Assembly (NCBI GenBank): GCA_051004255.1 | Contig: JBPCKN010000012.1 | Location: forward strand, 23,119 to 87,118 | Length of the DNA: 64,000 nt | Direction of reading: 5' to 3' | Source of the DNA: Chitinophagaceae bacterium | GTDB taxonomy: Bacteria; Bacteroidota; Bacteroidia; Chitinophagales; Chitinophagaceae | The notes under the pieces: generated by a model | What the model saw: the letters and a program-made list of their open reading frames with translations, nothing else | Told to the model about the DNA's origin: nothing | The model's database searches: none | Translations under genes and position numbers: made by a program | Shown here: positions 6,729-64,000 of the stretch, one piece after another | How the letters are laid out: the number at the start of each line of letters is the position of its first letter | Numbering within the stretch: position 1 is the stretch's first letter

Positions 6729-8069
6729 TTGAGTGAAAAAATAATCATATTAGGTGCGGCTGAAAGTGGCGTGGGCGCTGCATTGCTGGCAAAACAAAAA
6801 GGTTATAAAGTTTTTGTGAGCGATGAAGGAATGATTAAAGAAAATTACAAAAAAGAGCTCATTGAAAATGAAATTGAGTTTGAAGAAGGCAAACATTCAA
6901 TCGAAAAAATTTTGAATGCAGATGAAATTGTAAAGAGTCCGGGCATTCCTGAAAAGAATGAAATGGTAAAAAAAATTCGTGCGAAAAATATTCCCGTAAT
7001 CAGTGAGATCGAGCTCGCATACAAGTTTAAAGGCGACAGCAAAATTGTTGCAATCACCGGCAGCAACGGAAAAAGCACAACAACCGCAATGATTTATCAC
7101 ATCTGCAAAACTGCCGGACTCAATTGCGCGCTGGTTGGAAATATTGGTTACTCTTTTGCAAAACAAATAGCAGAAAATCCAAAACCGTTGTACGTGGCAG
7201 AGATTAGTTCTTTTCAATTAGATGATATAAAAAATTTTCGAGCAAATATTTCGGTGCTTTTGAACATTACAGAAGATCATTTAGACAGGTACGAATATAA
7301 TTTTGAAAACTATATCAATAGTAAATTCAGTATCATTCAAAACTCAACCAGTGAAGATTATTTTATTTACTGCGACGACGATGAAGTGATAAAAAAAAAA
7401 TTAGAAGCAATGAGACTTATTACTAACCCAATCCCATTTTCAATGAAACACGAACTAACTAACGGCGCCTGGATAAAAAACAACCAAATGATGCTGCGTG
7501 TGCAGGAAGAACGAATGAGCATGAGCATTTATGATTTTGCACTGAAAGGAAAACACAATCAATACAATACAATGGCAGCAAGCATTGCAGCCACAACGCT
7601 TGGAATAAAAAAAGAAAAAATCCGCGAAGCGGTTACAAATTTTGAAAGCCTTGAACATCGTATGGAGCATGTTGCAACCGTTCGTGGAATTGAATTTATA
7701 AACGACAGTAAAGCAACAAATGTAAACAGCACCTGGTATGCCTTGGAAAGTATGAATAAACCAACCATTTTAATTTTAGGCGGCCTCGATAAAGGCAACG
7801 ATTATAATTTAATTAAAGATTTAGTAAAGGAAAAAGTAAAAGCAATTGTGTGTATGGGAATTGATAACAAAAAAATTTATGAGGCATTTAAAGATGTTGT
7901 TGAAAATATTGTTGACACGCAGAGCGCAAAAGATGCAGTAGAAAAAAGTTTTCAATTATCAGCAAAAGGTGATGTGGTTTTGTTAAGTCCGGCTTGCGCA
8001 AGTTTTGATTTGTTTAAAAATTATGAAGACCGAGGCCGGCAGTTTAAGCAGGCGGTGAAAGATTTATAA
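6729..8069 (+). CDS. murD: UDP-MurNAc-L-alanine:D-glutamate ligase
   Basis: N-terminal Rossmann-like GAAESGVGAA and P-loop GSNGKSTT. A TTG start is assumed. dcw position fits. Confidence 0.9.
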   Translation: MSEKIIILGAAESGVGAALLAKQKGYKVFVSDEGMIKENYKKELIENEIEFEEGKHSIEKILNADEIVKSPGIPEKNEMVKKIRAKNIPVISEIELAYKFKGDSKIVAITGSNGKSTTTAMIYHICKTAGLNCALVGNIGYSFAKQIAENPKPLYVAEISSFQLDDIKNFRANISVLLNITEDHLDRYEYNFENYINSKFSIIQNSTSEDYFIYCDDDEVIKKKLEAMRLITNPIPFSMKHELTNGAWIKNNQMMLRVQEERMSMSIYDFALKGKHNQYNTMAASIAATTLGIKKEKIREAVTNFESLEHRMEHVATVRGIEFINDSKATNVNSTWYALESMNKPTILILGGLDKGNDYNLIKDLVKEKVKAIVCMGIDNKKIYEAFKDVVENIVDTQSAKDAVEKSFQLSAKGDVVLLSPACASFDLFKNYEDRGRQFKQAVKDL

Positions 8070-61669: not shown

Positions 61670-62736
61670 GGTAACTACACAGTAAAAGGGCGAATCTTTT
61701 TATTAAGTTTTTTAAAATGTAATAAAGTAATTCCTCTACAATTACAGATGTATCACCATTATAATAAGTAAGGTGGCAATAATTTGCAAGTGCAGTCAAG
61801 TATTCTGATCGCTATGTTCAATTATTTACTCTTGCTTTTAAGGACTTGGTATTAGCGAGAAAAGCAGGAACAATGTCAAATCAATAATACAAAATAATAG
61901 AAGCCATTGTTATTTTTCTTTAGAGAAATATGTATTTTAAATTACTTTGTCCGTATACGCGTACCAAAGCTTTTATTTTTTTTAATAAAAGCTCCCTTTC
62001 ATTATTCATGAATTTGAAATATCCTGCCTCGTGCTCTTATACGTTGTAAAGACATTAATGATAAAGATGATACACCGTTAGGTAATACAAAAATCGATAT
62101 TGAGAATCATAAGGTCATTTAATAATCTACTCTTGACTGGCTATCCGCAATGAGTTTCAGAATGAGAGCGCCTGCAATAAAAACGGCTATAACAGAAAAG
62201 GCAGGCAGATTTTTTTTGTTCAATGATTTCTTTTTCATACGCTTTTCATTTTAATAAACAGAATAAAAAATATCGGAAAAAATTTTATTTTTTTATAAAA
62301 TTAATATTTTATTGATAATTTTTTAATTATGAATTTTTTTATTCCCTTTTTTATTATTTCATTCAAGGTAATTGAAAAGGAATTACTCACTTCATATCAG
62401 AAATCGTTCTAAAATTTTAATAAATATGTGCAAAAAAAAAATATTTTAAAAAGAATCCTTTATTTAAAAAATGCAGTACCTTACAATATATTTTCTAACG
62501 ATAATCAATATTTTTTGTTCACTGGTAACTCAACATTAATAGCGAATATGTATGTTGAGTTTTGATACTCGAAACGTAAATATTTTTTCTCTGATTTGTG
62601 TGAAATTAATGATGAACTTGCCTAAACGTTTCCACTTCAATTGGTAAAAAGATGGTTAGTAAGGATGTAGCAAATTGTTGAAAAGTTGATTTTCGCTAAT
62701 CGCTCAAACATTTATTCATCACATAAAATTAAACCC

Positions 62737-63795
62737 ATGGCTACAAAATCAGTAACTGGTACAAACTCCGTAAACGATATTCATATCATTTGGCTAACAT
62801 CCGGACTGAGTTGCGATGGTGATTCAGTTGCAATGACTGGGGCAGTTAATCCCAGCCTGGAAGATATTGCATTAGGGGCATTGCCCGGCATGCCCAACGT
62901 TCATATTCATAGCCCGGTGATATCTTATGAAAACGGAGATGAACTTATGCAATGGTGGTATAAAGCGGAAAGAGGAGAACTTGACCCCTTTGTTTTAATA
63001 TTGGAAGGTTCGGTACCCAATGAGGAAGCCATTAAACACACCGGCGGGTATTGGGCTGCTATGGGTACTACTGGCCCCTTTGGTGATCCTATTACTACTA
63101 ATGAATGGATTGACCGGCTTTCAAAAAAAGCAGCCGCAGTTGTGGCCCTGGGCACTTGCGCCACTTATGGAGGGATACCCGCAATGAAAAATAATCCAAC
63201 TGGTGCTATGGGTCTTCCTGATTACTTAGGATGGAATTGGAAGTCGAAGGCAGGCTTACCCATCGTTTGTATTCCCGGATGTCCTGCCCAGCCGGATAAT
63301 ACAACAGAAACACTTTTATATCTTGTTTTCCAATTAGCCGGTAAAGCACCTATGATTCCTTTAGATGATGCATTGCGTCCTAAATGGTTGTTCGATCGCA
63401 CTGCTCATGAAAATTGTGACAGGGGTGCCTTCTACGAACAAGGTGATTTCGGACAAGAATATGGCACACATAAATGTCTTGTACAAATAGGATGTAATGG
63501 GCCTATAGTGTATTGCAATGTCCCCAGGCGTGGTTGGCAAAATGGAATCGGAGGATGCCCTAATATTGGAGGTATTTGTATGGCCTGTACTATGCCTGGA
63601 TTCCCTGATAAATTCATGCCTTTTATGGATGAGGCTATTGGCGCAAGATTTTCTTCTAATTCAGCAAAATTTATATCAGGCCCTATCTTGAGAGTCTTTC
63701 GCAGAATGACTGCTAATAAGAAAGATAAAGAACCTGCATGGAGGAAACCCGGTAAGAAGATCACAAGTGGCTATCAGCCTGCATGGGAAAATTAA
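62737..63795 (+). CDS. [NiFe]-hydrogenase small subunit without a Tat signal, with a Cys-to-Asp variant in the proximal-cluster motif
   Basis: Fe-S ligand pattern: GLSCDGD (instead of CxxC), GTCATYGG, PGCPAQP, HENCDRG, CLVQIGCNGP, C...GGCPNIGGICMAC. No RRxF twin-arginine leader. The ATG at 62737 is preferred. Confidence 0.85.
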   Translation: MATKSVTGTNSVNDIHIIWLTSGLSCDGDSVAMTGAVNPSLEDIALGALPGMPNVHIHSPVISYENGDELMQWWYKAERGELDPFVLILEGSVPNEEAIKHTGGYWAAMGTTGPFGDPITTNEWIDRLSKKAAAVVALGTCATYGGIPAMKNNPTGAMGLPDYLGWNWKSKAGLPIVCIPGCPAQPDNTTETLLYLVFQLAGKAPMIPLDDALRPKWLFDRTAHENCDRGAFYEQGDFGQEYGTHKCLVQIGCNGPIVYCNVPRRGWQNGIGGCPNIGGICMACTMPGFPDKFMPFMDEAIGARFSSNSAKFISGPILRVFRRMTANKKDKEPAWRKPGKKITSGYQPAWEN

Positions 63796-63847
63796 AATTT
63801 GACTTTCTATACAATGACTACTATTAATTAAAAATAAAAATTTTATT

Positions 63848-64000
63848 ATGCCAGAAGTACTAACCAAACCAAGAGTTTCCACAGATAAACCCAACGTTGT
63901 AATAAAGGAAATGTCATGGGATCCAATTACCCGTATAGTAGGTAGTTTAGGTATCCATTGCAAGATTGATTTTACCAACAGAAAAGTTCAGGAGTGTTAC
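63848..64000 (+). CDS. [NiFe]-hydrogenase large subunit, N-terminal 51 codons (runs off the window)
   Basis: Hand translation gives MPEVLTKPRVSTDKPNVVIKEMSWDPITRIVGSLGIHCKIDFTNRKVQEC. DPITRI-x-G matches the conserved N-terminal DPVTRIEG region. It starts 52 nt after the small subunit. Confidence 0.75.
   Translation, partial: MPEVLTKPRVSTDKPNVVIKEMSWDPITRIVGSLGIHCKIDFTNRKVQECY

Follow-up and report, generated by a model that had tools for sequence, protein, structure and literature searches.

Group 1h [NiFe]-hydrogenases (Hhy, formerly group 5), enzymes of O2-insensitive H2 oxidation that in most cases have a high apparent affinity, are thought to drive most of the biological uptake of atmospheric H2. 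Their structural archetype is the AH of Cupriavidus necator (Ralstonia eutropha) H16, a soluble, low-affinity enzyme composed of HofK and HofG (PDB 5AA5). Its Km is about 4 µM, its proximal [4Fe-4S] cluster has three Cys ligands and one Asp ligand, and replacement of this Asp leads to the loss of O2 insensitivity (PMC11023054). The soil high-affinity enzymes, namely Mycobacterium smegmatis Hhy and those of Pyrinomonas methylaliphatogenes and Methylacidiphilum fumariolicum (Hyd-1h), belong to the same family and share its Tat-less architecture; 1h small subunits have been described as lacking a twin-arginine signal peptide, and the membrane-associated 1h enzymes reach about 0.1 µM (PMC7174314). 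The group 1l (Hyl) enzymes of Hymenobacter roseosalivarius and other Bacteroidota form a sister family, which is likewise Tat-less and aerobic, with a Rieske-type partner and HupD; in the Antarctic study in which 1l was defined, five small transmembrane ORFs lie between the 1l subunit genes, and 1l shows less than 40% identity to 1h (bioRxiv 10.1101/2020.08.06.239558). The usual hosts of 1h are Actinobacteriota, Acidobacteriota, Chloroflexota, Proteobacteria and Verrucomicrobiota, and Bacteroidota are not among them (PMC9561532). Bacteroidota have been named among the possible high-affinity H2 oxidisers, only in passing (PMC10716739), and a distant 1h member in Robiginitalea is recorded by HydDB (PMC5037454). 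No paper was found on H2 oxidation or group 1h in Ginsengibacter or Chitinophagaceae.

The locus described here lies on a Chitinophagaceae chromosome (contig C12) of 34% GC, a host unlike that of AH, and the genome comprises 3.31 Mb in 20 contigs. At the 3' end of the window (the whole stretch of 64,000 nucleotides that was analysed), two adjacent genes, hhyS and hhyL, very probably encode a cytoplasm-facing, O2-insensitive [NiFe] uptake hydrogenase of group 1h (Hhy, actinobacterial-type), as judged from their sequences. The features are as follows.

62668..62670, + strand: in-frame TAG, 22 codons 5' of the hhyS ATG, which excludes an N-terminal signal extension
[quoted passage not shown]
62812..62823, + strand: C26-D27-G28-D29 motif of the hhyS product, with D29 at the site where a CxxC proximal-cluster motif has its second Cys
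63796..63847, + strand: AT-rich spacer of 52 nt between hhyS and hhyL
63848..64000, + strand: 5' end of hhyL, predicted large subunit, which runs past the window end

The translated hhyS product begins with MATKSVTGTNSVNDIHIIWLTSGLSCDGDS and carries the Pfam domains Oxidored_q6 and NiFe_hyd_SSU_C. The complete hhyL gene encodes 603 aa, matches NiFeSe_Hases in Pfam and ends at the window-equivalent position 65659 (C12:86966-88777). An earlier reading made from the sequence only (hereafter, the sequence-only reading) had placed the large-subunit gene 52 nt after hhyS and had noticed the motif WDPITRIVGSLGI in its start region, both of which match the ORF.

Searched against all PDB chains, both subunits align over their full lengths with AH: the hhyS product matches HofK (5AA5 chain A) with 503 bits and an E-value of 3.7e-150 over residues 9-347, and HhyL matches HofG (5AA5 chain C) with 977 bits and an E-value of 4e-293 (residues 17-578 against 19-579). 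Among the other solved hydrogenases, none exceeds 137 bits with the small subunit or 150 bits with the large one. In an IQ-TREE phylogeny of 79 large subunits, HhyL belongs to a Chitinophagaceae clade with SH-aLRT support of 96-98, which falls inside the 1h set together with AH and Pyrinomonas methylaliphatogenes. The root was placed on just one 1l-like branch, a very long one, and the deep order within 1h is therefore unreliable. The 90%-identity cluster representative of the Pyrinomonas protein, which is in the same 1h group of the tree, is 72% identical to HhyL. The sequence-only reading had called the enzyme 1h-like and had proposed a large-subunit phylogeny as a check; the bit scores to 5AA5 and the grouping with the AH and Pyrinomonas enzymes, far from the 1l-like outgroup, bear it out and support an assignment to group 1h proper rather than to something merely resembling it.

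Group 1l, the class earlier reported in Bacteroidota such as Hymenobacter, had to be weighed against this assignment, because Bacteroidota are reported 1l hosts (bioRxiv 10.1101/2020.08.06.239558; PMC9561532) and a 1l-like enzyme is indeed present, instead of 1h, in a sister genus of the family (G014; locus L036, G014:C28, 2164-6857). That enzyme, however, is only 42-45% identical to the one described here, its subunit genes are separated by a gap of about 1.55 kb, and its motif is CDGC, whereas the 52-nt spacer between hhyS and hhyL contains no ORF and the motif is CDGD. The 977-bit match of HhyL to HofG is likewise at odds with the low identity published between 1h and 1l, and a very long branch separates HhyL from the 1l-like sequence in the tree. 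Group 1l was thus rejected for hhyS and hhyL on similarity, gene spacing and motif, and we regard it as extremely improbable.

A Tat-exported periplasmic uptake enzyme (groups 1a-1f) or a Huc-type enzyme of group 2a, with the start of hhyS misread, would be a further alternative, and the hhyS product does match the NCBIfam models NiFeSe-small and hydA, which represent periplasmic small subunits; these matches fall far short of the model cut-offs, with 166 bits where 470 are required and 114 bits where 179.5 are required. The Huc enzyme of M. smegmatis (group 2a; 7UTD/7UUR) reaches only 111-112 bits with the small subunit and 97 bits with the large one, the latter over a C-terminal stretch only. 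As to export, the frame upstream of the hhyS ATG is closed by the TAG at 62668-62670, and the 22 codons between them (QIVEKLIFANRSNIYSSHKIKP) include no RRxF or RR motif. The same MA... start is found in 12 close relatives, and wherever the upstream frame of these relatives was read, it is closed by a stop just a few codons ahead of this start. The upstream stop, the missing twin-arginine codons and the common start together indicate that the Tat-less start is real and conserved, and a hidden signal peptide on the hhyS product is not possible. The sequence-only reading was therefore right that the small subunit lacks a twin-arginine leader, and both group 2a and the Tat-dependent members of group 1 were discarded on similarity, motif and upstream stop; the chance that either applies is close to nil.

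The region of about 1 kb before hhyS (61670-62736) is AT-rich and without ORFs, and its sequence is not kept among 12 Chitinophagaceae relatives. A conserved promoter or operator was also sought in the 260 nt 5' of hhyS at 13 Chitinophagaceae loci and was rejected: these sequences show no alignment beyond AT-richness, and TAnnTTTG occurs in none of them.

HMMER sets CDGD against the CTGC of the [NiFeSe] small subunit 4KL8_S, which means that D29 stands where the second Cys of the proximal cluster would be; HofK reads GLGCDGDSVSIT, with a CDGDS motif identical to that of the hhyS product. Alignment with HofK, HofG and the [NiFeSe] enzyme shows that every Fe-S and NiFe ligand position is conserved, the medial and distal His and Cys positions being the same as in AH. 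The putative ligands of HhyS, assigned by this alignment, are C26/D29/C141/C182 for the proximal cluster, C260/C274/C281/C284 for the medial cluster and H224/C227/C247/C253 for the distal cluster. From the alignment only, three Cys ligands and a single Asp ligand are predicted for the proximal [4Fe-4S] cluster of HhyS. The earlier suggestion of an Asp at a proximal-cluster ligand position thus holds, since D29 aligns with a Cys ligand of standard enzymes and CDGD is identical in AH; its treatment of the Tat-less start and the CDGD motif as a variant does not, since both are family-wide traits of 1h and not particular to this genome. CDGD is present in all 16 of the 1h small subunits aligned (from Bacteroidota, Verrucomicrobiota, Pseudomonadota and Rhodothermota), and the 1l-like enzyme has CDGC.

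The large subunit is equally close to AH. Its L1 motif, RVCGICGDNH at residue 78 (in full SSRVCGICGDNH, with Cys80 and Cys83), and its L2 motif, DPCLPCGVH at residue 570 (SFDPCLPCGVH, with Cys572 and Cys575), contain four of the four Cys. The L1/L2 signatures of 1h are reportedly TSRICGICGDNH and SFDPCLPCGVH (Constant et al. 2011), and HhyL differs from them only by conservative changes, with Ser for Thr and Val for Ile. In the alignment, the L1 of HofG itself reads TSRICGICGDNH. RVCGICGDNH and DPCLPCGVH match their AH counterparts apart from Ile to Val. HhyL has a C-terminal tail of 25 aa after His578, and mature HofG ends at the equivalent His. Like HhyS, the AH small subunit has no signal peptide.

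Four sites beside the Fe-S ligand motifs distinguish the HhyS of the Chitinophagaceae clade from all seven of the other 1h small subunits aligned. At P148 (63178-63180), GGIP is found instead of GGIH, the His being otherwise invariant, and at C178 (63268-63270), IVCIPGCP replaces IVNVPGCP and puts an additional Cys four positions ahead of a proximal ligand. At N254 (63496-63498), beside the distal cluster, the clade has GC(N/Q)GP instead of GCWGP, with GCYGP in L015 as the sole exception, and at Y259 (63511-63513), V(Y/F)CNV replaces V(Q/N)CNV. The corresponding residues of AH are His, Asn, Trp and Gln. One could suppose that the enzymes of Chitinophagaceae, and probably of a few neighbouring Bacteroidota lineages, form a 1h sub-lineage of their own, in which the altered residues may tune cluster potentials, affinity or partner choice, and which would represent an unrecognised sink for atmospheric H2 with a distinct enzymology. 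We offer this as a speculation that is rather unlikely to hold; if it were true, common low-GC heterotrophs of soil and freshwater would be such a sink.

Downstream of hhyL, on the same strand, are found genes for DUF5947 and DUF6084 proteins, two Pfam-less ORFs (360 and 96 aa), a HycI/HupD-type endopeptidase and a protein combining NifU and Rieske parts, and then HypA, HypB, HypF, HypC, HypD and a formyltransferase plus enoyl-CoA-hydratase protein of HypX architecture. HypE (TIGR02124, 419.7 bits) is encoded 5.3 kb beyond the hypX-like gene. The hyp genes that the sequence-only reading had suggested looking for downstream are thus all in place, and the maturation gene set is shown to be complete. 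The run from DUF5947 through DUF6084, orf360 and orf96 to HupD is syntenic in the 1h loci of Chthoniobacterales, Methylocapsa, Methylocystis and a Rhodothermales MAG, that is, in Verrucomicrobiota, Alphaproteobacteria and Rhodothermota, and the accessory block and the NifU-Rieske partner are common to this locus and the soil high-affinity 1h loci.

Some members of the cluster deserve a description of their own. The genes orf360 and orf96 (L001:6144-7226 and 7229-7519) belong to no Pfam family, and their order is kept in the 1h loci of at least four phyla, across which they show identities of 30-59% and 37-68%, respectively; as accessory genes, both are specific to 1h clusters and uncharacterised. 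Canonical Rieske boxes read C-x-H ... C-x-x-H. The Rieske part of the NifU-Rieske protein (HhyE-like; L001:8073-8999) reads C-P-A-C-D ... C-Q-L-G-H, neither box being canonical, and the cluster ligation of this protein may be non-standard. Between the hypX-like gene and hypE lies an insert of about 5.3 kb (C12:99681-104968, window-equivalent 76563-81850; L001:15791-19925 and L002:68-929), which encodes a Dam-like type II methyltransferase, a HerA-like ATPase of 660 aa, a protein of 446 aa without a family match and, as two ORFs, a YhcG/DUF1016 PDDEXK nuclease (PADLOC PDC-S02). In the relative G034, the hypX-like gene and hypE are direct neighbours, so the insert looks like a defence islet gained in the source lineage, and it could affect the expression of hypE.

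From this gene content, a working scheme can be proposed. H2 would be split at the NiFe site of HhyL, with the four Cys in RVCGICGDNH and DPCLPCGVH as its ligands, and the electrons would pass on the cytoplasmic side through the three Fe-S clusters of HhyS, with Asp29 and three Cys presumably binding the proximal one as in AH. They would then probably be handed to the NifU-Rieske protein (HhyE-like) and through the quinone pool to the oxidase of the aerobic respiratory chain. Maturation would be carried out by the cluster's own hypA, hypB, hypF, hypC, hypD and hypE products, with the HypX-like protein making the CO ligand aerobically and the HupD endopeptidase removing the 25-residue C-terminal tail of HhyL. 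We infer in this way the activity, the O2 insensitivity and the electron acceptor of the enzyme, and its affinity may be high enough for atmospheric H2. For the soil high-affinity enzymes, sub-micromolar apparent Km values have been measured, but since AH is of low affinity, membership of 1h is no guarantee of atmospheric-H2 uptake. The source genome contains a single [NiFe]-hydrogenase and one haem-copper oxidase (COX1), and no RuBisCO large subunit was found in it. This combination points to a supplementary energy role rather than to autotrophic growth, and the enzyme likely provides extra energy to an aerobic heterotroph, for persistence or mixotrophy.

The closest loci (one genome per species), with 82-91% identity, come from Chitinophagaceae and Ginsengibacter MAGs and from the isolate Ginsengibacter hankyongi BR5-29, whose enzyme shows 88-90% identity, in agreement with the Bacteroidota-like host suggested earlier; the next relatives, at 65-68%, are those of Verrucomicrobiota, methanotrophs and a Rhodothermales MAG. 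The enzyme is present at 82-91% identity in about 20 Chitinophagaceae species, which form one clade and have the same gene order where it was checked. A 1h-level match was found in only one of 300 other genomes sampled from the family and in none of 400 sampled across the phylum, the 97 other matches in the phylum being 27-48% identical and belonging to other hydrogenase groups. So the distribution of 1h in Bacteroidota is very patchy. The next lineage out (P0003, 81% identity) adjoins a SusC-type receptor gene (CarboxypepD_reg and Plug), a neighbour that suggests another Bacteroidota host.

Such a distribution raises the question of a recent horizontal acquisition of the cluster, still readable in its codon usage, at which the sequence-only reading had hinted. 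It had noticed that the hydrogenase genes use more G/C-ending codons, and this much is correct: GC3 is 0.341 in hhyS and 0.328 in hhyL, which puts the two genes at the 95th and 92nd percentiles, as the 1590 long ORFs in this genome average 0.277 ± 0.037. The step from there to transfer finds no real evidence. The CCC, GGG and CTG fractions of the two genes are at the 79th-84th percentiles and their codon-usage distances at the 90th-94th percentile of ORFs of similar length, and the total GC (0.44 for hhyS and 0.41 for hhyL) is raised mostly by amino-acid composition; the codon skew is small and not an outlier. GC3 and total GC do exceed the genome mean in hhyS, hhyL and the DUF5947, DUF6084, hypC and hypD genes, the rarity of 1h among the family and phylum genomes sampled would fit a recent arrival, and the cluster carries a mobile defence-like insert. 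Against this, half of the cluster genes (hupD, hypA, hypF, hypX and orf360) do not exceed the genome mean, the Chitinophagaceae species noted above form a single clade with a shared gene order, and the P0003 locus stands beside a receptor gene of a type typical of Bacteroidota. Because GC3 and codon distance stay below the outlier level and several cluster genes are at or below the mean, there is no real sign of recent transfer; with every measure only at the 79th-95th percentile of the long ORFs, it was rejected on codon usage and appears improbable. The very patchy distribution makes an older acquisition likely, and either that or retention in a narrow lineage was likely followed by vertical descent.

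In short, the kind of enzyme is already known, and the sole unusual point is its low-GC Chitinophagaceae host, in which the class is rare. The locus brings no new insight into the enzyme's mechanism, since both the missing Tat leader and the exchange of Cys for Asp are textbook traits of 1h. What it does indicate is that a core 1h enzyme, together with aerobic maturation of the HypX type, is fixed in a clade of Chitinophagaceae; and because this clade includes the cultured isolate Ginsengibacter hankyongi BR5-29, H2 scavenging by Bacteroidota through a 1h enzyme is directly testable.
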